Source: Haplodiscus bocki
Lineage: Eukaryota
Assembly: GCA_965655095.1 (NCBI GenBank)
Contig: OZ296648.1
Span: 42,284,001 to 42,348,000, forward strand
Direction: 5' to 3'
DNA length: 64,000 nucleotides
The position numbers and the translations under genes are program-made. The stretch's first letter is position 1, and each line of letters opens with the position of its first letter. The notes below the pieces were generated by a model. That model was not told the DNA's origin. It worked only from the letters and a program-made list of their open reading frames with translations, and ran no database searches. Positions 30,699-51,918 of the stretch are shown one piece after another.

Positions 30699-33011
30699 CA
30701 GGCACCCGGAATTTCTGCCGCCAAAAAAAGTAAATTCTGCTTGTTAAATTCCTCAATTCCGCTTATTTCTGCTCTTTAGGCAAAACGTGGGTAAATTGCA
30801 AGTTTAATTGAAAAATTCATTCAAACTTTTTAAAATCGCTGTTAAAATAACAATAAAGAAGGTTTTTCAAGGCTTCTTCAGATAAATTTGCTCCGTTTTG
30901 GTGAATCAAGTAGTGTTAAAATACTAAAACTTCTCTCCACGTCGGCTGCGGAGGCGGGTGTCCACAGGCTCCGTGAAGCCTTCCACATGAGTGGCAGTTC
31001 ATTGTTCTTCCCCTCCGAAAATTTGTCAATTTCAAAGTTTTCTAAGGGGTATACTGCATTCATATAAATAACCCACTCGTTCAGGAACTCGATATCGGAA
31101 GAAAACCCAGGAATATTAAGATAGTCAACAATATTCCGACTGAGACTTGCCTTCTGGCGAATATCAAAAATTCTTGCGCTTTTGAAGAAGTTTAGCGCTG
31201 GTTTCTGGACATCAACATGCTTGTTAAATTTCTCAGACGCTATTTTAAACGCACTTTGATATGTAATTGGGCAATCTGCCAGACTCCGATTTGCTAAATT
31301 GGCTTCGGATAATATGGCCTCGATTTCTTCCGGAAACTGAACCTGGGTTCTTCCTGCTTCAAGTACCGCCTGAAAATTCGTAATATTATTGTAAACCTGG
31401 TGGGCAATAAGTTTTTGGTTTAACTCAAAGAGTTCAATAAAATCCGATATAGAATTTCCGTAAAAGGAAGCAAAGGCTAATTCTAATATCAGCTCCCAAA
31501 ATTTCGTACCAAGAATAGTAAGAATTTCTCGGGTATTGGAATTCTCATGACCTTGATCATGTTCTGCTTCGAAGAAGGATTTATACAGATGCAGCCTTTC
31601 CTTGTGGTAAATGCTGGCCTGTATCCAACTAGTCCATCTGGTAAAATTTGCTATAACAGGCATCTTGGATTTACTTTCAGCATTTTGCCTCTGAAAGTCA
31701 ACCCAGCGAAATTTTCGCCCAGCATTGATTTGTTTTTTGAAGAGTGCATTAAGCAGAAGAAGGCATTGTTTTGCAAGTTTGAGCTCATGATGCCACGTCT
31801 CACCCACTAGATTTAGAATGTGAGCCCAACATCCGATCCACGTAATTTGCGGGAACACCTAAGTACGGTTACATGACTTTTTGTAAATATGAAACAAAAA
31901 GTCGGAAACGATGGGATACTCACTTTATGTAGAATATCGGAGTAGGCTTTCTTGCAATATGCAGTGTTGTCTGTGATTAGGAAGAATACACAATCGCGGA
32001 GTTGATGAACGATAATTGCGTCATTGGCAGCGGCCGCGACGTTTGCGTGATTTGCGGGTTCGTGTAGAAAGACAGACTCCAACAATAATGCTTTGTCCCC
32101 AACCCTGACCAAAAAATTCAATATTTGCCTTTCTCTCTGGTCCGTTGATTCATCGACTATAATAGACAACTTTTCGTTATTTTTCCTACATTCGTCCAGG
32201 AAAACTGAAACAGCACCATGTACTTCTTCGGCAACTTCAGGTATGTAATAGGTTCGAAGATTGTCAGCGGAACTCAGGGCCCCTCCTTGGTTGGGGGTTT
32301 ATTATTTTGATCCAAGGGGTCATTTTGTCAACTTTCTCCAATGGTATGTTGCTCGCCAAATACATCTTAACAAATCCAGTAACAAATTTGGAACGGCTTT
32401 CCTGGCTTTTCTGCACCGTCGTAAGGGTCACCTGCCTCAAAACTGGTGCCGACGTAGTTTCTTGCACTTCGCGCTTGTTCTTGTGACTTTTACTCTGCAA
32501 ATGATCTTTGATGGTGGAAGATTTCAAATCGACCGAATGACAGCAGAACTTACAGAAAAGCAGGCCATCGTCTTCGTAAAATATAGTCGAGTACTCCTTT
32601 GCGCGAGATGAAACTGTAAATTTCCCGGTAACCTTCGGCATTTTTCAATACGAGAGGATAGAAATATTTTAACACTGGTAGGAAAGGAATAGGAAATAAT
32701 GAAGAGCAGGTTTGCAGGAATAATTCAAAAGCAAGAATATCGCGCATGTAAATTGCAGAGCAGGACCTGTTCTGTGTACTGCCTACGCCTGAAGTGTTTG
32801 CCTAAGTACTTACCGCGTAGTCAACAAGCTCCAATCTTGATTTTGATGCGCATACATCGTATTTTATTTAAAATTTTCTATAACATGCAAACATATTCTG
32901 GAAAATTTCAATTCTGCGGCTATTCTGTTCTAAAAAAGTGTTTTCCGCTTTTGAACCTCAATTCTGCCTATTCTGCCCATTTCTGCTGCCAGCAGATTTT
33001 CCGGGTGTCTG
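30699..33011 (-). mobile_element. Full-length hAT DNA transposon (CGGBP1-like transposase)
   Basis: TIRs CAGGCACCCGGAATTTCTGC and CAGACACCCGGAAAATCTGC; perfect 8-bp TSD ATGATAGG at 30691-30698 and 33012-33019. Confidence 0.95.
30878..32641 (-). pseudogene. hAT transposase with a 65-bp intron (31923-31859) and one frameshift (~32295)
   Basis: N-terminal zinc finger LFCKFCCHSVD..TIKDHLQSKSH; DDE residues in IIVDES, ITDNTAY and DVERSFS; CWAH motif. A GTGAGT...TTAG phase-0 intron joins ILHK|VFPQ. Confidence 0.88.
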
Positions 33012-33558: not shown

Positions 33559-33944
33559 GTATAAACTAAGCTAAACTTCGCAAACTATTGCCATCGCAGC
33601 CACTCTTTCAGTAATAAATGCCGTGTTACCCAAACGTTTCATGAAACATTAAACCTACCGGATTAGATTCAAAAGAAACGCTCATGAAAAGCAGTAACGC
33701 CATCATTTGATCGGCATTGAACAAAAAAACGGATATCTCATCAAAGCTGAGCTCAAGAATAGAATGACAAACTCAGTAATATTGAAATGGCGTAGCAGTG
33801 ATGCTATGTCGGTAAAATGAGAACAAAGTGTAAATATGTATTTTGCAGAAAATGTACTTTCTACAAGCAATTTTCAACTTTTATCTCGGCTTCATTATTT
33901 CTTATTCTCTGCTTCATTATTTCTTATTCTCAATGTAAACTAAC

Positions 33945-34441
33945 TTTCCAGAAAGCATTACGAGACTTAGCAACCAAAACTGAACTTTTGACTGACCGAT
34001 TAGAGGTAACAATGTTGGTAACTGCATTGTTTTCTGTTTGGTGATCACCTGCCGTCACCCCACTGATGGTTGCACCTCCGCCTGTGGTGTTTGAACTGAC
34101 TAACGCAGGATGATTGACGGGAAAGGATCCCACAACTGAAGTTGTATTCGTCGTTGCGCCAGTCGCGGTAGCCACGGTTGTAAGTTTAAGGGCCTCGGCC
34201 AGCGCCTTCCTGAGTACATTTTGACTGTCGAACACACCCCACGTGGCTTGTAGAACTGCGTCCAGCAAACAGTCACCGGCTGTTCGGTTCCAAAGAGGGC
34301 GCAACTTACTTTTTAACTTCACTGTCACTTCACGATTCCAATTCACGACACAGTTTTCTACTTCAAGTTCTCTTTTAACCGATTCGTCAATGATTTCACT
34401 CATTAGTTGTTTCTGTACAATTCGCGGAAGTTTGTGAATTT
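33945..34441 (-). CDS. ZRANB1: TRABID/ZRANB1 coding exon (OTU N-part with catalytic Cys)
   Basis: LRPLWNRTAGDCLLDAVLQATWGVFD..VLRKAL is the TRABID catalytic Cys motif. Acceptor gttgcag| (phase 1, giving LPA-E-IHKLP); donor AAA|gttagt (phase 0). Confidence 0.95.
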
Positions 34442-34626
34442 CTGCAACACAGTTGATGAATGATCAACTAACTATGCATTCATTAGAATCCCATATATTA
34501 AAGGGCCACAATTCACTCGAAGTTTCAATTTTTTTATTCAAGTCGATAACATATCTGAAATCTTATGACGTTTCATGAAAAGATTAGGATACAGAAGAAA
34601 ATCCGGAAAAAAACACAGATTCTAAC

Positions 34627-36358
34627 CCGCAGGAAGAACATATGTTTGTGAGTTGTCCTGAAAAACGTAACATTTCATTGCACCAGTTTTCCATCGCAGA
34701 CTGTTCGAGATCGTTCTTGTAATCTGATTGGTTAAATCTGAAGTCACACCACAGGCGGGATGCTTGACATGACATCCAAAACTGGACAATTTGTCACTAT
34801 TCATAAGTATTTCGATGATACGCGCTCTCTTGAACAGAATTGCAATCATCATTAAATTGAACCGATCAACGACACCAGGTATATCTAGAACAGCGGCTTC
34901 AGTGGCCGACAAAATGCGTTTCTTATCTCCACCTGAGAAAAGGTAGGCCTCTAATGGTTCCACTGCACCAACAGATACTGCCCAACACGCCTGAAGAAAC
35001 TTCCAGTCTAATTTGCCCATTGAGAACCGGTTGTTACCCTGAAAATATTTGTAATCACTCATCGGATCTCTACCATTCTGGTCAAGATTCGCAGCCGCAG
35101 CCTGTAGTTGCTGAGCCTTTTTCTTCACATCAGCAAAAGATGGGCTCTTCTTGCGAATATTGAGCCTCTTCATTCTTTCCTCTATTGTAAACACGGCTTC
35201 CCATTTCCGACTATTTGCTCCTTTAGGGGTGTTTTTTCTATTCAAAGTTACAGGCGGTGAGATTTTTTCTTTCCCACTTTGCGTTTCATCTATATTGTTT
35301 ATACTATGCTGCGATCGCTTCTTTCCACAAACAGAACATTTCATAGTTTTCCAATAATTCTCATAGGTACATGCGGAACATTGCCACTTATGACTACTAC
35401 CCACGGTTTTGCTGTTCGGTCCTCCTGAGGTAGAGTGAGTTGCTTTACTATTGCGTCTATCATTAGAAGAAATAGACGAGCCCGCACTTCCATCGTCGCT
35501 CGAAACAACTTCAGGGGATTTAGATTTTGAGAAATTTTCATTATTACAAGATTCATTTGACTTCCTCACCCAATCAGGGGGAGCTCTGCAAACAGCGCAC
35601 ACCTTGCTCCTAGGCCAATTGTAATAGGTACACCTGGGACAAGACCATTTCTGAGAAGAATCTAAAATGATATGTGGAGATGTTGAGTCATTTTCAAAAC
35701 TGTTTGAGGTTGTGGGTTGGTTGCCCTTGGTATCATTTGCATTAGTTTTCAGGATATCTTCAACATTCGTTACAGCGACAGATTCTTCATCTTTGTTTAT
35801 TGCTTCGTTCGATGACGTTCTTTGGTGACAACTTGTGGTCTCCATTTGGTTAAACTCAATAGAACTGGCAGAATCCGGTCTGTTGTTGATAGGATACGAA
35901 TCCATATACGAGAGATTGTTGCTAGTCGACGGAGTGGGCGAGTCTCCCCAGTTATCAATGATTGCGGCAGGATGTGAAGTAGCTGCAGGTGAAACATCTT
36001 TAACTTCGCTGTCAAATATATTACCCGGTGACGGCTGGTACTGCTCGGTACACATTGAACACCGGGCAGATTTACTATAATTTAAGTAAGTGCATCTCGG
36101 ACAAGACCAACTTCCATCATCGGAGGAGGTTCCTCCGCCAATTGTGGGAAGTCCACCGACAATTGATTTGGAACTTCCATTCTCTGTCTTTTCATTCTCG
36201 ATGATGAGAGTAGGCTTTTCACTAACTGTTTCAGACTGCCGTTCTTGGCTGTGTGTGCTATCAGCGCTCTCAGACTTGTCCAATATTGTACACTCTCGAT
36301 GCCGCGCAGCATCTTTACTTTTATTTTCTTCGACTTTCAGCCCATCGCTTTGAAGCAT
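34627..36358 (-). CDS. ZRANB1: TRABID/ZRANB1 large coding exon (3 NZF/RanBP2 zinc fingers + AnkUBD)
   Basis: Three W-x-C-x2-CTY-x-N-x6-C-x2-C fingers; AnkUBD-like DWKFLQACWAVSVGAVEPLEAYLFSGGD. Acceptor tttttgcag lies 8 nt before ATG 36358; donor GCGG|gttaga; 185-bp intron to the next exon. Confidence 0.93.
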
Positions 36359-36906
36359 TCTAGGTTCTGCAAAAACGGATCGGACTCCTCTACAAGAAAC
36401 TACATTGTTTTACAAACTTGCAAATTTCAAGTGAAGCTGAGCTGTACATCAATTTTTAACATCACAAACTGAGATAAGCTCAATCAGCGTCATACAGTAA
36501 GCACATTTAATTAAGATCAGTACAAGCAACACAAAAAGACAAGTCACAACGCAGACTATACAAAATTATTGGGGTTGAGTTGTCCAAAACTTTTTGCCTC
36601 TTCAAATACCCACCTCTAGGTTCGAAATGAACATCAGACAAACCATAATTCTTTAATTATTTTTCCGGTGATAATTTATGTGTGAGGAGAGTAGACCAGG
36701 TATACACTTATGAGAAAATGGGCCCATAAGGGGCAGAGCAATATCAAAGCTACATTGGTCATACACGGAACTACCAGGTAAAACAAAAAGAGGAGTTCAG
36801 GTATCGAAGTCTTCAGTATGCCTTCTCACAGGGAAGCAACAACCTTTTACCACGATGGTCCCAACTTTCAACAATGGTAGCATCTACCTATTTTTATAGT
36901 ATAATT

Positions 36907-39818: not shown

Positions 39819-42034
39819 CAGGGGTTCAGAAAAATTAATTGGTCCTCCAATTAATTGATTAGTCCGAATTTTCCAATTAAATAATTGATTGGTGATGTGT
39901 CCAATTAATTGCCATTAATTGCAATTACTTGACCTTGAAAACGGATAGAATTCTTTTCCATATGTCATCTGGCTCTCTTCGTATAACTGTGATGCATACA
40001 TGTTCATTATCTTCCCGTGAGGCATACACGTGCCTAATACATGTGTTAACCGGTTAGAGATTTATAATAGATTCATTTCGTATGAATTTGGAGACTTGAA
40101 TAGAAATAAAAATTCGCGGCATCACATTTTGACGAGGCTTGGAGTATATTGAGGCATAAAGAAAGTTTCAAAACGATAACTTCATAAAAATAAATGAGTT
40201 AGCGTGTCCGCCTAAAGTTTCCGAATATGGTATGTTAAGTCGATTTAATCGCTCCACTTTCAGCTACTGCTATGATGAGTACAGAAAATGCCGCAATTGC
40301 TCGTCGCTATTGCTCGGAGACAGAAGAACCAGACAAGTGGAAGTGCAAATGTGGCAAGTAGCTGATCAATCGGAAGGATTGTGGATGGACAAATTTGATC
40401 ATCCACATTAAGTCGCAGCATCTAGAATACGCAACAGAAGGCGACCCACAACAAACATCAATGGCATCTTACCTTGTCACCAATCCTGGTCACAAAATTG
40501 GAAGGTCGGCCATGGATGTCCATGGATGGAACGAATGGGTTTGTCAAGGACCAAAACATTCTCCTTTGTTCAGGATCCATTAACTCAAAAATACACAAAC
40601 GTTGGAAGCATGACAAGACCTACTTTGCTGAAATACATGGATCTACTAACGAAAGAAGTCGAAAAGACAATTTCGAAAAATCTACCCAATCAGTTGTCTT
40701 TAGCCATTGATGGCTGGTCGAAGGGTTCGACGCATTTGGAGTGTTTGCTGCATAAACCGAACGTAACGAAAAGGGGTACTCTTCGGTCCTTTTGTCAATT
40801 TTGCCAATGGTTGATGAAAAGAGCTTCACTGCGCAGGACCATTATGAGCATCTGACGTACGTCTTGAACGTATCCAAGAAGACGTTCGAAAATGTCGTGG
40901 CGATCATCGGAGACAACGTTGCTACGAACAAACGAATAGCTGATCTCTGTGGGGTCAAATTTGTTGGATGTGCATCTCACCGACTGAACCTCGTCGTCTC
41001 CACTTAATTGGAGCGTCATGGTCCTCTCTTGGAAAAAGTGAACACTCTTATGGGAAAGCTTCTGAGTCCGAAGTTGGCAGGTACGCTTCGCGAACAGACA
41101 AGCTTGAAACTCATTCAAAGAAACAAAACTCGCTGGTTGAGCACCATGGACATGGTTGAGAGGTATATATTCGACTGAAGCCATTCCTGGAGGTTCTAAG
41201 CAAAGATCGGAAACTTGTTGACATGCTTCCCACACCGAGAGAAAACAGCGACCTTGATAAGGTTCAGGAAAAACTGCCAACATTGAGATCTGTCACTGTT
41301 GCTCTACAGGGAGAAAACGTGGATCTCGGCGATGTGAGAGCTCTTTTTGACGGACTTTTATCGATATATGCAGAACCTGAATTTGCAGAATATTTACGCC
41401 AAGATGCAGAAATCGTACACTCAAAATCTTTCAAAAGTGCCATCGTCAAACTATTGTCTAAACAGGAAGAAGAACTGAATGAGGAAGAAAAACAGGATGT
41501 CACTGCCTTTCTTATCAAGCATGGCTGCCCGGCGCCCGAATTGGTTGACTCTGATGAAAATGATTTCGTTGTGAAGTGTTTCAAGAAGAGACGGATGAAG
41601 AAGGTAGCTGAACTAAAGAAGGCAAAATACACTGATGCTCGTTTTATTCTGTCAACTTCAGACCTATTGGAAAGATTTTTCAGCAGTGCCGGCTTTGCTT
41701 ATGGGGAACATCGACAAAGTTTACTTCCAGTAAATCTCGAAATGCAATTGTTCTTGAAGTCTCTGGAACGAAGAAACCGTGTCAAAGATTGTTACCGAAC
41801 CTACTCAGATAGATTAACTTGTGAGAAACTACTTTTAAATTTCAGTTATATATCAGTTTGCAAGTTATTTCATAATTTTCGAACAATTTACTTTGTCGCT
41901 GAAACATCTTTTTAATTACCAAATAATTGCGATTAATTGCAATTATAATTGCGAAGAGACAGCAATGCCAATTAATTAATTCGTCGGGTAAACGATTGAT
42001 TGGAAGCTTACCAATTAATTTTTTCGAACCCCTG
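39819..42034 (+). mobile_element. Full-length hAT DNA transposon
   Basis: 25-bp TIRs CAGGGGTTCAGAAAAATTAATTGGT and CAGGGGTTCGAAAAAATTAATTGGT; perfect 8-bp TSD CCATAGCA at 39811-39818 and 42035-42042; subterminal AATTAATT repeats. Confidence 0.95.
40272..41770 (+). pseudogene. hAT transposase (BED finger, DDE, dimerisation motif), disrupted
   Basis: WKCKCGK..GWTNLIIHIKSQH, LAIDGWS, IIGDNVATN..VGCASHRLNL, TRWLST, LERFFSSAG..LPVNLEMQLFL. Several stops and frameshifts. Confidence 0.88.
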
Positions 42035-42099: not shown

Positions 42100-43532
42100 C
42101 TTTCGTCACTGGAAGTCAATAAGAGCTGACATCATAACATCAGCTACAAACTGTAAGTCAAAAAAATAAAGGCGTCGGGTTTTTGACAGACAAAATCTTC
42201 TGCAGCAAAAAAAATGCGTCGACGTTTTCAGTAAAAACATCATATCGGTCACACTTTCGGAAAAGAGGACATAACCATCGTCCAAGTGTATAGCCCGATA
42301 AAGTTGAAGAAACATATGAAGAACTTAAATGCATCCCCGAGAAGCTTACGTGCGACAAAGGAAAGCAATTAATTGCCATAGGACACTTTGATGGAGTAAA
42401 TGGCCACCATGCTGAAACCACAATGTGTAAGGATTTTGTAATTAATTACAGAAATCGCAAAGGAGAAATGTTTCCAGATCTTTCCGCTCTGGATTCAGTG
42501 ATCCTAAAAACCAGAAGTATCAAACAGTTGGAACGACAGCAGTGATCGTGGCTGTTTGCAGATCGGAGCCTTTCAGATTACACTAGGAGACCTTACCTTC
42601 AGCACCTGTGTCAGCAAATGCAAAGTTTTGCATAAAACTGACAAATTCTCTGATCACTTCCTGTTGTAGCAGAATTAAAAGTGACAAAAGTCACCTCCGT
42701 TAAGTCAACAGTGGAATTGAGTCAAATAAGCAGCAGGAGTTTCAACAAGAGCGAACTTATCTTGGTTGAAACCTTGAAATGCCTCCCAAAAATCAAAATT
42801 CTCCGCCCATGACATCTCTTTTGGAGAAAAGCATTAAGACAGCGGACATTATGCAAACAGAAACTTGCCGAAAGAAGTGAAACACGTGGATGACGAATGC
42901 ATCTAAGAATTGAAAAATCAGCGGTCTCGAGATCAGAAAGTTAAAAAAAAATCGGACAATTATCAACCGATCCAAAAGCAGGAATGCAAAAAAATAGAGA
43001 TCCAAAAACTCTCGAAAAATTGTATTACTTCGTGAACTACATGATAGAAAGAGAAATTTGGCAAGCTCAATAGATTGTCCAATCAAATCAATCTGTGAGA
43101 AAAAACAACTGTTAGGGAGATAATTTACTTGCCCCTGACTTAGCTTGAACGAGAAAGCTAAAAACCAGAAAGACTTTACAAAAACTATCGGAAAGGACGG
43201 ACACTTAGAACAGTCAAAGAATGAATAAAAGGAGGTACCAGTTCGTCGATTATACATATTCACAGCACGAAAGAAACACACGAAAGAAAACCTGGGAAGG
43301 TCTTTAGTTAGGACACTACTGGTACATGCTTTTATGAAAAAATTCTGGTATAATAAAATTAATGATAATAATATTAATGATAAAACGTATATTAAAAAAT
43401 TTGAATTTACAAAGTTGCTGGGATTATCCATCCCTTACGAAAAATATTCACGAGACACACAAAGAGCGTCTACAGCCAAGTCACCATGAACATGAAATAT
43501 TTTCAGAAGTCTTGAACGAAAAAAACACCATA
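42100..43532 (+). pseudogene. Old decayed LINE ORF2 (endonuclease/linker), continued at 47279-47520 beyond the inserted younger LINE
   Basis: SDHF-PVVAEL-like endonuclease end at ~42650. An RT fragment SGVSLGNVLGFLFILNVDD..FSADTK resumes at ~47320, on the other side of the TSD. Confidence 0.5.
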
Positions 43533-43656
43533 TATATATATATATATACTGAATTTACGCCCAAAGCGAGGGGACTGCTCCCATTAAATGAGTTCATTGA
43601 TAACAGTTTCCGTTGTTGTTACTCTTGAAATATCTGTCGAATCAGGCTTCAATAGT

Positions 43657-46375
43657 TTATGCATTCATGATCATCTGTCTTCTGTGGATGCTCCTACACG
43701 TTACACATAGGCAAACAAAGTGCCATGAGCAGATGTTGTTTTCTTGATATTGTTCAACAAATTTTTTCCACATTTGGGTAAGTAATTTCTTTTTGATATT
43801 TTCATTGTCGGTGATGTTCAAGTGTTTGGAAAGGACATTAGCTCGATAACAGGCACGATAAAAGAAATTGTCACGTAATAATTCACAGGATATTTGGGGT
43901 AAGTAGAACTGTATTTCATTTCGCCCATATTTCATAACAATATTGGAATCAAAATTTACATCATATTTGTGTGTAACAATACCCGATAACAGAATAATTT
44001 CTTTCATCTCCATGAAATATGTCAAAGGCAAAATTTGCAGGTGAGATAATCTGTCCTTGTAGGAATCTAAATAGCACATCCATTTGGTGATTTTCTTGTT
44101 GAAGGCCTCTAGAGCTCTGACATCCATTCTTGATAAGGAATAACACTCTGATGCATAGAGAAGTTGGGGGATAATTGTACTCATGTACAAGAGAAGTTTT
44201 GAATATTGCGAAATAGATTTGCTGACATTTCTCTTCAACATCTGGAATGTTTTGTTTGCCTTTGCAAGCTTAGTTTCTATATGAGCAGTCCATTTGAGGT
44301 TGTTACTTACCACCAGACCCAGGTCAGTATTTCGAGTACACTCAGCAATTTCCTCAGAGTATATTTCAGGTGAAAAATTTAGCTGTCCCTTGAGCAAGAG
44401 ATAGTGACATTTCCTCGAGTTGAAAAGTAAAAAGCGGGTTTTACTCCAAATTTGCAAGCTCATGAGGTCGTTTTTGAGAAGAAACGATTGAGAGCAGGAT
44501 CCGATATATATACCAGATAGGTCGTCGGCAAAAAGATATGCATATAAATAGAGCAATTCATTTGGTAAGTCATCGATGTAGATAATGAAGCAAAGAAGAC
44601 CAATAAGGGTACCTTGTGCTACACCGCAATTGATTTTTTCCACTTTTGAAGTGGCGTTATTGATTTTCACCATTATTTTCCTGTCTGTAATGTATGATGT
44701 AAGCAGTGAGTAAATCTGTGAGGATAACCCAAGTCGCTGGAGCTTTTTCGTTAGAATTACGTGGTCTATGCTATCAAAAGCTCGTTTAAAAACAAACAGG
44801 AAGAGCGCAATGCATTCAGATTTTGTCCATTTCTCATATATATGGGATAAAGTCTTCAGTAATCTTAGCACAGGTGATCGTTTCGCTCTAAAGCCATACT
44901 GTAAGTCGTTTGAATGTGGGGAATACGTTGCTAACAGCTGGTTGTATACATTTATTTCAAAAATTTTTGAAATGGTGTTCGGCAAGCTAATAGGGCGATA
45001 ATTTTCAACAAATTTTTTATCACCTTTTTTGAATACGGGAACTACTAATGTAAGCTTCCACGTTTCTGGGTAAACTCCCAGACGGGCTACATTTCGATAG
45101 ATGTTATACAATGGGTGTTGAATAGCATCTGCGGTGTTTTTGAACAATGCGACTGGAGGTTCATCAGGACCTTTTGCTTTATTCACATTGAGTTTGTTTG
45201 ATGTTTTATAGATTTCAGTCTTCGTGATCCTGATTTCTGTATTCCCAGGGTTGCTATATTCAGGAGTTGTAGTCATTCTATCAGTTTTGTTAACACTGCT
45301 GAAATATTCACAAAAACAAATTAGCTCGATCTTTATCATCCTCAGCCCAATTCCTGTCATTCGGGATATCTCTGTAAATACGTGGAGATATTTCTTCACG
45401 TTTAAGTTGTCGAAAGTGGCGAAACATTTTGCTTGAGTTTTTGGTAGCAAAAATAGTTCGCTGATATTCACACAGATCTTTGCATAATTCATTGGATAAT
45501 GTGGCCTGTAGGCTACATTTTTTAATCAAAAGAGTGTTGCACGGTTTAGTTTTCAGACGTTTGACAACTGTATTCAATTTTTTGATTAGATGTGATGTAG
45601 AACTGCTGACCCATGGTGCTAAGGACGAGCGATGCAATGTTCCTACTGGCGTAACCTGTTCAATAAGTTGATATATCCAAGAGTAAAATTCTTCGATATT
45701 TTTGTCACAGTTACTATAACACTTAGGTACGAAAGGAGTTTCTATCATGAGAGAAGCCAAAGAATTAAAATCACATTTAGAGAAACTATACTCTTTCTTG
45801 TGATTGGTGATATTCTTGTAGTATTTATGATTGCTTTTAATGCAAACACTAAATCGGACAGGATAGTGATTTGAGCTGGGACCGTTTGGCATGACAGAGT
45901 TGCATTCAATTATAGACTGGAAGATTTCAGGATCTTTGGTCAATATGAGATCAAGAATACTGCTTCTGGTGGTATTAAAGTTTACCAATTGTATATAGTT
46001 TCGTTGCTCAAATTCATTGATAAATAATCTTTCATATTCATCAGCAGATTCATTGATATTCCAGTTGGTTTTTAGAGGATTCATATCACCACCTAGTATC
46101 TGGTAGTCAGTTTTGTGATTTTCTATAAAATTAAGAAGCATGATCCACTCATTAATAGATGCTCGATATTTACCATTTGAGGGAGTGTTATAGACTACAA
46201 TCAACGCAATTGAGCATGATCCAGCGTCAATTAGGACAAAAACAGCTGATTGTCGCAGATAATCCGAAGTAAAAGGAATATTTGTGTGAGGAATATTTCT
46301 TTTGATAGCGATTGCTCGTTTGTCAAGATTAATCAGACTTTGGCAGTTGAATAGAAATACATCATACTGAAATAG
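43657..46375 (-). pseudogene. LINE A ORF2 (APE endonuclease + reverse transcriptase); one frameshift at ~45312 and an in-frame EN deletion
   Basis: EN motifs LFNCQSL, ILGGDMN, ILDLILT, SNHYPV. RT motifs KAKGPD, NYRPISL, QYGFR, GVAQGTLIG, YLFADD. One extra T in ANLF(C)EYFSSV shifts the frame. Confidence 0.9.
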
Positions 46376-47260
46376 TCAGTTTTTCTCAGGTAGCTGGTTT
46401 GTTGCAGAAAGAGCTGCTTGGTTTTTCAGAATTGCATAATCAGATAGGTCAATTTCTTTGCCGTCAACAAAAAGTTTAAGATCTCTAATTTTGATTAAAC
46501 TTCTTTCAGTGCCTTGGTTTAGCAGATCTCTGCGTATTTGCGGAATGCGATTTTCATTCAATTTTTCTTCTGAGGATAGCATCCTGCTAATGAAAATTGG
46601 TTTGTGAAAGTTTTTCATTTTTGGACCCTTTGATAAAATTTTCCGAACATCCCAAGCTGATGATAAGGTGAGTATAACTGCGCGCGGTCTTTCTTTGTTT
46701 CTTACAAATTTTCCTAGGCGCTTTATGTCCATTATTTGCGGGGATTCTTCAAGGTGAGTTAAGACTTCATTTACAGCATCCATTTCATGATTCAATATCG
46801 CAGAAGCTCGATTTTCAGGCGAAACTTGCTCAACGTTTGCTTCAGCTAAATTGTGAATTTTTAGTTGAAAAGGAGCATTTGGGGGTAACTTATTGTCTTT
46901 TACAAGATCTGTTTCAATATCTTTTGGCTTATTTATTTCGCGCGCAGGCTCGAGTTTCGTCTTAATTTCAGTAAGAGAGTTTTGTACTGAATTCACCGAA
47001 ATTTTCAGCTCTTTGATAGCAAGTAAGGAATTGGACTTAGCTTCGGATTTGAAGGCATCATTGTCTCTGCAAGAGCTACAGATCCAGAGACAACCACTAA
47101 CTCTGCCCATCACAGTGACATCTTCTTGAGAGAGCCCAGCACATGAACATCCATGATACCAGACACTACAATTGTCACAGGCAATGCCAGAGGGGTCGCC
47201 ATCTTTCACCACTCTTTTGCAAGATCCACATTTCGACGTCGAAGTTGAAGTTTTTGACAT
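46376..47260 (-). CDS. LINE A ORF1 protein (PHD finger + coiled coil + RRM-like region)
   Basis: Intact 294-aa ORF. PHD-type CGSC..IACDNCSVWYHGCSC..WICSSC; C-terminal KRLGKF..RPRAVILTL typical of LINE ORF1. Confidence 0.88.
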   Translation of the reverse strand: MSKTSTSTSKCGSCKRVVKDGDPSGIACDNCSVWYHGCSCAGLSQEDVTVMGRVSGCLWICSSCRDNDAFKSEAKSNSLLAIKELKISVNSVQNSLTEIKTKLEPAREINKPKDIETDLVKDNKLPPNAPFQLKIHNLAEANVEQVSPENRASAILNHEMDAVNEVLTHLEESPQIMDIKRLGKFVRNKERPRAVILTLSSAWDVRKILSKGPKMKNFHKPIFISRMLSSEEKLNENRIPQIRRDLLNQGTERSLIKIRDLKLFVDGKEIDLSDYAILKNQAALSATNQLPEKN

Positions 47261-48159
47261 TTCAATCGGAAACTATTTACACCATAGACATTCTGAGATC
47301 CGAAGACCCTCTGCAAAGTCTCAGTGGTGTCTCTCTAGGGAATGTGCTGGGCTTTTTATTTATTCTCAATGTTGACGACAGGCTGGAATTAACAATGTCC
47401 CAAAGCTTTTGTTTTTCAGCCGACACTAAGTCGATCGTCTCGGTAGCACTAGTTCCAAAAATGCCCAAAACTATCTTGTTGCGCTGAATCAACGGTCACT
47501 TATTATTAATATTTCCCTTATGCATTCACATGCAAGATCCTTATCACTATTATACGGAGGCAGAGCATCAAAGCGAACCCTCCAAAGTCTAAACGGCCTG
47601 TCTATGAGCGCCCTAAAAATAAAAACGTTAAAAATTGTCTCGGAAATTTTTCAACAAATAACACCGACTTTCAAAGTTTTTCTGAGCGAAGTTTCAACAA
47701 TAAGCTAAATTAGTCTTCTTGCATTCCGGTACTGAAAATTGATTTAGAGAAAAATCATAAAAGTACTCCCCGGTATATCACGGAATTTCTCTGCAAATTA
47801 TTTATTTGAGGGGCTTCCAGTTTGTCGGAACTTGTACCCCGAATAGAAATAGACAGAATTGAGGGCTCACTCCTGAACAAACTATTTAGAAGACCATTTC
47901 AATGGAGCCCACTGTCAGATTTTGGATAAAGTTTCAAAATTTTTCCATTGTGAATTCCATAGACAGTGAATACTTTACATAATGCAAAGTGGGGAAAAAA
48001 GTTTCAGTTTTCTTTTGAGGGCGTTTTTTCGCGGAAGAATTCCCTTCAGGTTGAGTATTGGATACAATTTATTTAAAGGAAATGTTTCCAAGATAAGAAA
48101 TCCGTATGATTTAACGGGTTCTAGGTACGATTCATTGTGTCTTATTAACTTATTAAATA

Positions 48160-48861
48160 GTGTCTTTTCAGGAAGATGATTACTGGGGCAGCCGTGGCGG
48201 CCCCCTATTCTTTTCCCCTCAACGACAAATGGTCCATATTCTTGGCACCTCATCACTCTCCCGAGACATCCAAAAAATTGATTACAACTCCAAGCGAACC
48301 CTGAAGAAAACAATAACAGCAATCCCTGGTCTTTCGTTCAATCAGAACAACAAAAACGACCTCAAGTTTATTCCCACCTTGCTGTCAGAAGGAAGCTTGT
48401 CAAAGAGTTCAAAGAAGGAGAAACTTATCATCTGGCACGACGCTGTCAACAATTCCCTCTCCAGACACCCTTCAAACTTCATTACCCGATTGAAGCCAAA
48501 GCAGCTACAGCGAATTCTCACACACAACAAGGACTGCATATCAGCAATTGTGTACTGCAAACGCTCCGGAACTCCTGACGTGTTTCAAAAATTGTTTGAA
48601 AGTGGTATCCTGACGCTGAACGTGAAGAAGTCCAATTTGTCGAAACGAAAATCGAAATTTTTGTTCAACATCAAAGACCTTGCCCGAGTTCATCCAACGA
48701 CAAAAATTGACTTCACCATTCAACTAAGATTCTTAAATCTCAGGAGACACGAAGAAAACGGGAAAAGAATGTTTCAAGAACTGTCCTCGCTCACGCCGAA
48801 GAACCTGAAAAACTCATTACAAAGAAACGCTCCAAAAGCTGTGAGAACAAACCCTCCTTGA
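48160..48861 (+). CDS. SGNH/GDSL hydrolase-like ORF upstream of LINE B (3' end replaced by an inverted-repeat insertion)
   Basis: Motifs in SGNH block order and spacing: HILGTSSL (I), AIPGLSF (II), LIIWHDAVNNSL (III), RVHP (V). The likely start is the Met of MVHILG. Confidence 0.5.
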   Translation: MSFQEDDYWGSRGGPLFFSPQRQMVHILGTSSLSRDIQKIDYNSKRTLKKTITAIPGLSFNQNNKNDLKFIPTLLSEGSLSKSSKKEKLIIWHDAVNNSLSRHPSNFITRLKPKQLQRILTHNKDCISAIVYCKRSGTPDVFQKLFESGILTLNVKKSNLSKRKSKFLFNIKDLARVHPTTKIDFTIQLRFLNLRRHEENGKRMFQELSSLTPKNLKNSLQRNAPKAVRTNPP

Positions 48862-49092: not shown

Positions 49093-51918
49093 ATGAGTCC
49101 ATCAGAACCCCGCAAACGTGGCATGACCACATGCAAAACTTGCGATGAGAAAGTATCTGGAACACGACGCTTTTGATGCTTCTCTTGTGGTGTAGTACTC
49201 CACAAGTGGACAGAATGTACTGGTTTCTCAGCTTCAGTTGTCAAAAGTTTGCGAAAAGTGACAAAAAACGTGCCCCTCCTTTGCAATTTTTGCGCTGAAA
49301 ACGAACGCGAAACGCTGTTTCAAGACGTCTACGCCACCAGAATGAACCGCCTCGAAGAAGAAAACAACCACAAACTGCAAGCAATACAGGACAAACTCGA
49401 CGAGTACAAAATGAACGTCAGCGACACGTACTCATCTGTTGTGCCTCTGAAAAAAGAAACTAAAAACATTGACTTGAAGCTACAACAGCCTGTTCAAGCG
49501 AAAGCATTTGAGTCAAAGGTTGCAGAACGCAGAGGCCTCCGACTACGAGACATTCCTGAAATGTCTGGCATTCCTCCTGACAAAGCGTTCAAGAAAACCA
49601 TGGAAAAGTAGAATCTGTCTTCGAGTTCCTTGCCGGAAAGAAGCTCAATATCAAAAGCCTAAAAGGAGCTCGCCAATTCAGAGACCTCAGTCCCAAACCA
49701 CGAATCTTGATAGTACAGGTCGATAACGAAGCGTGTCGTACACTTCTGTTGAAGGCCTCACGAGAACTGAAGAATTACCGAGAAATGTCGGGACCAGTAC
49801 TTCTCTCGAAGGAACTTACAATCGAAGAACTAAAAACTGAAAACGAATCACTTCGAATGAGAAAAGTGAAAATCGATCAAGGAGTTCATAGGGAGAAGCT
49901 TCGTATCCGAAATCTCAAACTTGAGATGCAAATTGACCAAGGGGTTTGGGAAGAGGTTTACGACAACATGGCGGACGGTGCTGAAGCACCGTCGGCCTGA
50001 CTACCTAACCGAAATCACGAAATGCAAGTAGACCTACTGATGTGGTATGTTAGAAATATGCCCGATTTGAATCGTCGAACAACTTTATCAAATCCACTTG
50101 CCTTGCAACAATTCCACATCATTAGCCTGTGCGAAGCTGGGCTAGTAGACACAAAACTGAACAGTGGCCTTTTTCTTGGAAACCGGCCAAAATTCCGTCG
50201 TGATCGACAACGTAAGCGATCCGGGAAATCGAGTCACGGTGGCGTACTAATCGCCGTCGATAGCTCGATACCCTGTGAAGAAATTACCGAGTTCAACGTT
50301 TTTTAAGACGTTGTGAGCATTGTCTGCCATTTTTGTTCAATTCAATTTTTAGTTTTATCGGTTTACTGTCCCCCTGAAAATAGTCTTCACCGATGGGCTA
50401 GCAGTAACTTTACCCACTAACTGCAAGAAATTGACAAGGTTCAACAACAATACTACATAACGGAAATCATCGTCACTGGAGACATCAGTTTCCCGATAAC
50501 TGATAGGAACAGTTTCTCAAGCACGAGTGACTACGAAAACTCCAAAGCTGGAATGTTCGTGAACAGGGGCTTCGAACAAAATCTAAGGAAGACAACAAGC
50601 GGCTCACTTGATTTTTGTCTGCTGATTAAACCAGAAAAAGTAGTTCGATGGTTTAGCAAAACCTTTTCAATCAAAAGTGCCTTTCTTATTGGAAACTTTC
50701 GCTCTGATCATGACCCTTTCTCAATTTTCTTCAATATGCAAACTCTTTCCGTTAAAACAACCCAGACTCACTCCTTTTCCTACTCAAGAGTGGATTTCAA
50801 CAAGGTCAACAAGTACATCATTGAGAACCCCTTCTCTTTATACTGCTATAGTAATTGCGACAAACTTTTGGAAACGTGGTATGAGTGGCTACATGAAATC
50901 ATGCTTGCAACAATTCCCATACGTACTAATCATAGAAGCAGTCTCCCAATCTGGTTCACATCGCCAACATCTTGCATCATCAGAAAACTGAAGTCTCTAC
51001 AACGCAAATTGAATTCTGAACCATCGCCTGCACTGCGAAACAAAGTTAGAAGTCTAGAAGACCTGGTGGCCTCAAAGATCAACGAAGATCTCACGCTATA
51101 CAAAGAAAGTAATTTCAAATTTTTACATTTTAGCACGATACAAAGATACTTACGCTGTATTCGTTGGCCTGATCCCATACCGACCGAAATTTGCCATGAA
51201 AACTCAACAGCTAACACGGACGAAGAGAAGAGCTTTCTTTTTAATACTTTCTTCTGTAGTGTCTTTTCGAAATCTAACGACCATGAAGATGAATGTACTG
51301 CTGAATCTACCGAAATACCTGCGATATTGGAAGACCAATCGATAGAACCAAACTTTTCAAATGACATTACAAATCTACTCAAATCTACAGAAGAGTGTAA
51401 CGAAATGGATTTGCAGAACGTCACAAGTCAACTACAAAACCCGCCTGATCCAACTGAAGCTGATACCAATTAATTTATACATCGAAATGCACTATTTACT
51501 AACCTTCTGTAAATAGTAGCTGATCAACACAACTTCGACTGGAAGAAGCACATCAACCCTATTGAAAAAAACTCCATGAGAACATCAACATCAACCCCGT
51601 GTTATCTATCAAAAAAAAAAGAGCAAAAGCAAAGACATTTTTTGGTACAGAACTCTTCAACTTCACCGAAGACTATCGAAAACTGTAAATTTACAAGAAC
51701 TGTGCTACGTGAAAGAAGGTATCCAAGATTACAACTGGAAGTTCCTCATCAACAAATTTTGTGAAGGAAACTTGTGCTCATGGCAAATCAACTGTCAATG
51801 TTGAACCTGCTCGCCATGAAGTAACTGGTATTTGCGTGGGCTCAATACCCTTCCGTTGGAGAAACAAAATATTATTATTATTATTAATCTTATTTATGAA
51901 AATATTATTATTATTATT
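49093..51918 (+). mobile_element. CR1/L2-like LINE (element B): disrupted PHD-ORF1, endonuclease, RT internally deleted, (ATT)n tail
   Basis: ORF1 from ATG 49093 (CKTC..CFSC..H..C..LLCNFC; stop at 49174, frameshift ~49600) ends at TGA 50000. EN motifs ISLCE, RRDR..HGGVLIAV, VTGDI, SDHDP. The sequence jumps to a post-RT fragment NFDWKKHI at ~51530. (ATT)5 occurs twice within 51871-51918. Confidence 0.85.

Follow-up and report, generated by a model that had tools for sequence, protein, structure and literature searches.

The 64,000-nt stretch of the Haplodiscus bocki genome analysed here (the window; assembly GCA_965655095.1, contig OZ296648.1, positions 42,284,001 to 42,348,000) contains a long interspersed nuclear element (LINE), element A, whose two open reading frames (ORFs) share one frame and are divided by a single TGA followed by CTA. 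The frame, the identity of the stop and its context are conserved across old lineages of related elements, and no usable AUG was found ahead of the endonuclease (EN) that begins ORF2. The best reading of this junction, to which we give a probability of roughly 80%, is low-level programmed UGA readthrough that would produce an ORF1p-ORF2p fusion. A sequence-only reading of the window had proposed such a fusion, and the comparison of families backs it at the level of sequence, from which readthrough and the fusion protein are predicted. That reading had also recognised UGA-CUA as the canonical readthrough context. UGA followed by CUA or CGG, with the downstream ORF in frame, defines the type II readthrough motif, and CAR-YYA after the stop defines type I (PMC3159437, PMC7026636; papers are cited throughout for the passages that bear on each point). 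Element A has the type II arrangement. Reviews treat the route by which a bicistronic LINE mRNA yields ORF2p as an open question, and the worked cases are reinitiation and 2A skipping (PMC3894237, PMC3708506).

Element A lies on the minus strand at 43529-47279 and is a nearly full-length but defective retrotransposon of the APE-reverse transcriptase (RT) type that lacks long terminal repeats (LTRs; a non-LTR element), 98% identical to the intact copy L282 over 43537-47279. Its 5′ boundary (47277-47279) is common to most family-A copies, which have a 5′ leader of about 19 nt. ORF1 (46376-47260, ATG at 47260) encodes 294 aa with an N-terminal PHD finger, for which the Pfam PHD match (E 0.002) lies below the cut-off and Atlas feature matches to PHD-bearing clusters reach 0.94-0.95. 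The ORF2 frame (43657-46375), which spans 967 codons in intact copies such as L282 and is broken in the window copy, matches the Pfam models for EN (PF14529, E 5e-8) and RT (PF00078, E 3.7e-21), both over the cut-off; no RNase H family was matched by Pfam in this ORF2, as expected for the CR1/L2 group. The 3′ untranslated region and tail occupy 43529-43656, with (TA)n at 43529-43548. An APE endonuclease followed by RT, dispersed copies and a 3′ simple-repeat tail identify these elements as LINEs by test; they are CR1-like by features, a presumptive label drawn from traits of the group, and our tree holds no named reference elements. A PHD-type ORF1 is a feature of the CR1/L2 group (Jockey superfamily; PMC4120745), and its Pfam match is over the cut-off in family S (E 2e-6) and below it in family A.

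At the junction the minus strand reads CCT GAG AAA AAC TGA CTA TTT CAG TAT GAT GTA TTT CTA TTC AAC TGC CAA AGT, with TGA CTA at 46373-46378 and the TGA itself at 46378-46376. The sequence-only reading had this TGA, the in-frame CTA and the EN that follows right, and gave GAA for a codon that is GAG. The ORF1 and EN frames are in phase, and the ORF2 frame opens with nine AUG-less codons (LFQYDVFLF) that lead to the motif-I Asn (46346-46375, Asn at 46348-46346). Two ATGs at 46360-46365 (minus strand) lie in the +1 frame, which stays open for 10 codons, and are not kept in other families. Reading GAG AAA AAC as a -1 slippery site was rejected, because families other than A do not keep it. The copy in the window is dead: an in-frame deletion of 186 nt that is private to it (46301-46316, minus strand) removes EN motif II, and comparison with family copies places a one-base insertion at 45312 (minus strand), whose +1 frameshift leaves this copy unable to make ORF2p itself. 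The deletion also explains why the first in-frame Met had seemed to lie deep inside EN. In the intact L282 it is codon 36, within motif II, which is still past the motif-I Asn (codon 10), and the claim that no in-frame ATG precedes this Asn holds for element A and for family A alike.

A DNA search of the 1.5-Gb assembly recovered 27 family-A loci on 11 contigs, at 96-100% identity. The junction is kept in 26, the remaining locus being truncated there; TGA is in frame at all 26, and 25 read TGACTA. Five family-A matches have an uninterrupted 967-codon ORF2 frame. Because TGA is in frame at 26/26 junctions and intact copies exist, it is the state of the family and not decay. The family-A junction is also spanned by a run X5 contig that bears the label of another organism; over 550 bases the two differ at 13 positions, all outside the hexamer. 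Two contig runs of unrecorded kind, compared with the junction region, show neither a joint nor an altered base at the hexamer. A metagenome scan gave one locus among 224 candidates, L231, which reads TGA CTA and is 92% identical to family C. Being close relatives, the X5 contig and L231 lend little depth. Four family-A fragments (L017-L019 and L026, on C11) stand in a tandem array with 3617-bp spacing.

Related families were sampled with EN proteins and Pfam models, without selection on the stop. A first EN search gave 150 matches (25 from family A, 5 others taken as loci and 80 of the other 120 examined) and a second gave 150 (30 loci, 20 more examined); two more searches gave 150 each (30 loci each, 13 more examined), and further searches gave 14, 150 and 18 matches, of which 10, 10 and 13 were examined. 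Each junction was called by walking upstream from EN motif I to the first in-frame stop. The tally of 283 loci, after removal of 31 duplicates and the metagenome locus, includes 201 junctions in 19 families (A-S), among which 189 have TGA and 173 TGACTA. Sense codons at the stop (11/201) are scattered and fixed in no family, and the single TAA is likewise no family state. Eleven junctions belong to a separate lineage, T. Among 74 unassigned loci, 5 have lost the junction, 67 are other lineages or host genes, and the rest revealed two further families, U (one copy, TGACTA) and V (TGACTA in the majority). TGACTA is consequently the commonest or sole state in 20 of 21 families; the remaining family, M, reads TGACTG. 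None of the sequence-level outcomes that the sequence-only reading had named as refuting it was seen: most family-A copies keep an in-frame TGA, no ATG in frame precedes motif I in that family, and TGACTA recurs across families. Families L, M, R and U are known from one copy each, and the old families P and Q hold a mixture, with TGACTA in 1/4 and 2/6 copies and scattered variants of it in the rest.

These families are far apart. EN identity among 20 exemplars is 18-55% (median 30%), and motif I follows the stop at any of seven spacings between 9 and 21 codons, all of which keep the frame. In a FastTree phylogeny of 55 rows, which left out P, Q, U and V as too short, 17 TGA-CTN families and five database proteins form one clade with Shimodaira-Hasegawa-like support of 100, and lineage T lies outside it. 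Young families that bear the junction have intact ORF2 frames of 912-970 codons, and therefore these families transpose with the junction in place. One locus, L278, has no TGA and an ATG of its own, and was considered as an exception. We rejected it: 13 of its 17 other matches could be aligned, and in the resulting 14 rows TGACTA is exact in 7, one base off in 5 and further off in 2. L278 is a decayed copy, since TGACTA is the majority state among its relatives and most copies do not share its ATG. Family N (L262-L264 and others) has more than 20 near-identical matches with a 944-codon open frame, four of them about 15.6 kb apart on C2, a near-identity that reflects either very recent activity or segmental repeats.

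The conservation of the codon after the stop is not explained by codon usage. CTA makes up 15.5% of Leu codons in these ORF2s and 15 of 96 codons at six other conserved-Leu columns, and other conserved residues are also written with mixed codons. Directly after the stop, CTA is present in 18 of 19 family exemplars (binomial P 4e-14 against 15.5% usage, an overstated value as the families are related). Synonymous sites are saturated between families, yet CTA has been retained at this position, and the hexamer is therefore under purifying selection. Conservation is limited to these six bases, with positions -2, -1 and +7 variable, and none of nine natural ORF2 stops taken as a control reads TGACTA. 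Within families the hexamer decays like its flanks (25/1133 sites, 2.2%, versus 299/11300, 2.6%), as expected for inserted copies. The families do share one ancestor, and an inherited stop context of no function, with ORF2 made from a downstream AUG or supplied in trans, would follow from that descent; yet all other synonymous sites tested are randomised, and the downstream AUGs (codons 21-208) would cut off the motif-I catalytic Asn, so that this explanation is barely credible.

A second line of evidence concerns start codons. In 16 of 19 exemplars no in-frame ATG stands ahead of motif I. In families N and P an in-frame ATG immediately precedes the catalytic Asn, where a start would probably remove the first strand of the EN fold, and none of the seven near-cognate codons tested occurs in the linkers of families A and O. 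Predicted proteins of five database relatives start past motif I in three cases and just before it in one. This bears on the strongest alternative, AUG-independent termination-reinitiation, in which ribosomes would stop at the UGA and restart on the next or a nearby codon to make a separate ORF2p, slow termination being what maintains UGA-CUA. ORF2 begins just ahead of the EN fold in every family, which fits a stand-alone ORF2p, and reinitiation has precedent in L1 and SART1 (PMC5972666, PMC5009743, PMC10275272). Families B, N and P also have in-frame ATGs near motif I. Against it, two substitutions separate CUA from AUG, and the better start CUG forms the majority in no multi-copy family. Nor does the ORF2 frame conserve a start codon or a UAAUG/AUGA overlap: a stop-start overlap of the SART1 type with an in-frame AUG was found in no family, the ATGA overlaps of D, E, I and K being in the wrong frame, and no downstream structure like that of SART1 was seen.

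Lineage T also bears on these two explanations. In all 11 of its copies (L286, L287 and L296-L304, one family) ORF1 and EN are joined by TGA-CAA-CTA, so that the stop is followed by CAR-YYA, the type I motif, and no Met occurs until codon 86. Here the residue after the stop is Gln, within the other readthrough motif, which speaks against reinitiation. A divergent sister family of lineage T, in which selection on this motif could be assessed, was searched for and none was found. As controls, two lineages in which ORF2 has its own ATG end ORF1 in TAA, as TAA-AGG-ATG or TAA-GAT. In one of them (L216, L226, L228 and L229) the junction reads TAA AGG ATG and a further ATG comes about 45 codons later; the first ATG is in frame in L228, and the junction is a candidate for reinitiation. 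That two lineages carry two textbook readthrough motifs and the AUG-bearing lineages carry strong stops is our strongest argument for readthrough over reinitiation, drawn from one T family and two control lineages. We consider reinitiation unlikely.

Under the readthrough interpretation, ribosomes would translate ORF1 from its AUG, consistent with the open PHD ORF1 of intact copies, and most would terminate at the UGA to release free ORF1p. In a small fraction the 3′ CUA would favour insertion of an amino acid at the UGA, and these ribosomes would pass through the 9-21-codon linker into EN and RT. The residue put in at a UGA is probably Trp, Arg or Cys. The product would be a fusion, ORF1p-X-ORF2p, of about 1260 aa (294 + 1 + 967), which would serve as the source of EN and RT and as the active enzyme. 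The stop would thereby set a high ratio of ORF1p to ORF2p, much like gag-pol readthrough in gammaretroviruses. By analogy with structure-free Sindbis UGA-CUA, for which the hexamer alone gives readthrough of 0.4% in vitro and 2.0% in cells (PMC3159437), the rate may be of the order of 1%. An N-terminal extension on ORF2p should be tolerated, because PHD, APE and RT in one chain exist elsewhere (PMC3708506), including in other lineages of this genome.

Several results weigh against this interpretation. Type II sites usually include a 3′ RNA structure (PMC3159437), and the conserved 3′ stem-loop raised in the sequence-only reading did not emerge: local folding of 20 exemplars gave mean z scores of +0.28 (80 nt) and +0.17 (150 nt) downstream of the stop, with controls at -0.26 and -0.38. 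As no conserved local 3′ structure was detected and Sindbis UGA-CUA alone is weak, readthrough may be low. Motif I of family B is preceded by in-frame ATGs at codons 8 and 14, the former being a CpG site that reads ATG in 14, ACG in 13 and another codon in 3 of 30 copies, and the predicted start of the database relative P0005 lies 14 residues ahead of motif I. Human L1 ORF2p is reported to be translated independently of AUG, a precedent for reinitiation. Finally, the binomial P overstates independence because the families share ancestry, and copy counts add no independent support because hexamer decay within families matches that of the flanks; the evidence lies between families.

Two further explanations concern how the UGA itself is handled. 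One is an RNA-level route: the junction might be spliced or trans-spliced, A-to-I editing might turn the UGA into a Trp codon, or an internal ribosome entry site in the ORF1 tail might use a non-AUG start, any of which would bring ORF2 into expression. The family-A CTGAC...TTTCAG does resemble a branch point and acceptor, and in family B a hairpin sits immediately 5′ of the stop. Of 20 exemplars, however, just 9 have the C before TGA, and the AG downstream is not kept, so that the branch-point reading fails outside family A and was rejected; conserved structure was detected neither 5′ of the stop (mean z -0.23) nor 3′ of it (+0.28). We consider such a route very unlikely. The UGA could also be decoded as selenocysteine, for which UGA-C is likewise permissive, or be a sense codon in this host. 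Across 10 loci that contain intact elements, no selenocysteine insertion sequence (SECIS) family gave a match at E<=1, and the UGA site falls in a variable linker. Nine intact ORF2 frames (8500 codons) hold 104 TGG and 0 TGA, and two of them end in TGA, indicating that the host does not read UGA as sense. Both forms of this explanation are highly improbable.

Readthrough between structural protein and polymerase has precedents outside animal LINEs. The closest is Group 3 of the Paramecium non-LTR elements (Guerin et al. 2017, PMC5405496), in which ORF1 and ORF2 are likewise in frame across one stop and the authors, judging by the consensus, suggest read-through. Group 3 belongs to a separate ciliate clade, and the passages of that paper available to us offer the suggestion in one sentence and hold no context motif, conservation test or experiment, whereas we describe an animal PHD-ORF1 clade in which UGA-CUA is fixed, and beside it a second lineage that carries CAR-YYA. 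Sindbis virus and o'nyong-nyong virus use the same hexamer between nsP3 and nsP4, with a viral polymerase downstream as a minor fusion (PMC3159437, PMC13517186); these alphaviruses are RNA viruses with an extended 3′ stem-loop, and no such stem-loop was detected here. The tobacco mosaic virus replicase has a type I CAR-YYA like the CAA-CUA of lineage T, after UAG and not UGA (PMC3159437). In gammaretroviral gag-pol and in the Copia elements Tca2 and VdLTRE5 (PMC7026636, PMC3441728), a structural protein and RT occupy one frame across a stop, as here, and readthrough sets the protein ratio; those are LTR elements. Murine leukaemia virus combines UAG-G with a pseudoknot and a protease that processes the fusion, and no protease domain was found in these LINEs.

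Known routes to ORF2p in LINEs differ from the junction described here. SART1 (UAAUG coupling) and L1 (reinitiation) also have a bicistronic mRNA with low ORF2 after ORF1 (PMC5972666, PMC3894237, PMC5009743), but give a separate ORF2p through an AUG overlap or a 63-nt spacer, whereas here there is neither spacer nor AUG. The 2A StopGo LINEs of the CR1, L2, Crack, Rex1 and Ingi groups (PMC3708506, PMC3894237) similarly place a co-translational recoding event upstream of APE, in a single ORF where skipping is driven by a peptide and no stop codon is involved. The NPGP motif of 2A before APE is absent from the 20 junction translations and present in other lineages of this genome. The ORF2 routes set out in the relevant passages of Luke 2013 (PMC3894237) are stop-start coupling, reinitiation, internal ribosome entry and 2A, and readthrough is not among them. 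Term look-ups found no mention of readthrough in PMC4120745, PMC13343379 or PMC11203168, or of "retrotransposon" in PMC13517186, within the text available. No paper on readthrough in an animal LINE was found in the literature searched, a search that did not extend to Repbase notes, subscription journals and bioRxiv supplements. As far as it reaches, the recoding strategy of viruses and LTR elements that we propose for these animal LINEs has been suggested once, for ciliates, and never shown.

It is possible, at odds a little short of even, that readthrough is common and overlooked in animal two-ORF LINEs, having arisen at least twice here (UGA-CUA and UGA-CAR-YYA); that the active retrotransposase is an unprocessed fusion co-assembling into an ORF1p particle in the manner of Gag-Pol; and that PHD-ORF1 CR1-like elements of other invertebrates do the same. 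If readthrough does operate, the gag-pol strategy would extend to LINEs, and retrotransposition would depend on the termination fidelity of the host. Cis-preference and a fixed stoichiometry would also have a simple physical basis in a fusion. The six-base signal, kept by about 20 old lineages, allows a sharp and cheap test, for which young intact families are at hand. Annotation is affected too: in such families ORF2 is wrongly called from an internal Met, and it is easy to take the in-frame stop for decay.

The window holds a second LINE of this group, element B, on the plus strand. Its ORF1 (49093-50000) is broken and ends in TGA, its TGA CTA junction lies at 49998-50003 (26/30 family-B copies have TGACTA), and the 5′ part of ORF2 (50001-51473, EN) is decayed, with no RT match found in frame. 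The sequence-only reading had called element B a witness against chance. It does share the junction, and is a weaker witness than claimed because in-frame ATGs precede its motif I. Family B also has an inverted repeat immediately 5′ of the ORF1 stop (49972-49997, plus strand), which is present in 30/30 loci and is not general in other families.

Element B also has an additional ORF, ORF0 (48229-48861, plus strand), with an SGNH/GDSL-hydrolase-like predicted fold. A homologous sequence of about 200-230 aa lies upstream of the PHD ORF1 in families B, C, F, K, N, O and Q (window 48229-48861; L263, 341-994; L276, L169, L121 and L238), with the frame intact in B, N and O, which makes these three-ORF elements; family A is without ORF0. 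The model of the family-N homologue (predicted local distance difference test score, pLDDT, 85.8) has its best structural match to SGNH/GDSL hydrolases, at Z 10.6, a root-mean-square deviation of 4.0 and 159 aligned residues. For ORF0 there was no usable Atlas match, the PDB sequence search gave weak histone-like noise, and Foldseek returned nothing at E<=0.001. Esterase ORF1s have been reported from vertebrate groups only, according to the passages of PMC4120745 that treat them.

Other LINEs of this genome have a single ORF (L062-L082, L289, L290, L294 and L295), with 2A-like DIHPNPGP, GIEANPGP and GIEQNPGP followed by PHD-like fingers before the endonuclease, as in Odon 2013 (PMC3708506). 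Their open frames reach about 1470 aa.

Elsewhere in the window, exons of an intron-split host gene at 33930-36409 (minus strand) encode three RanBP zinc fingers and an AnkUBD; together with the types of element present, this gene points to an animal host. We take this gene to be ZRANB1/TRABID-like, and the broken frames at 30878-32644 (minus strand) and 40412-41915 (plus strand) are presumably DNA-transposon-transposase-like.

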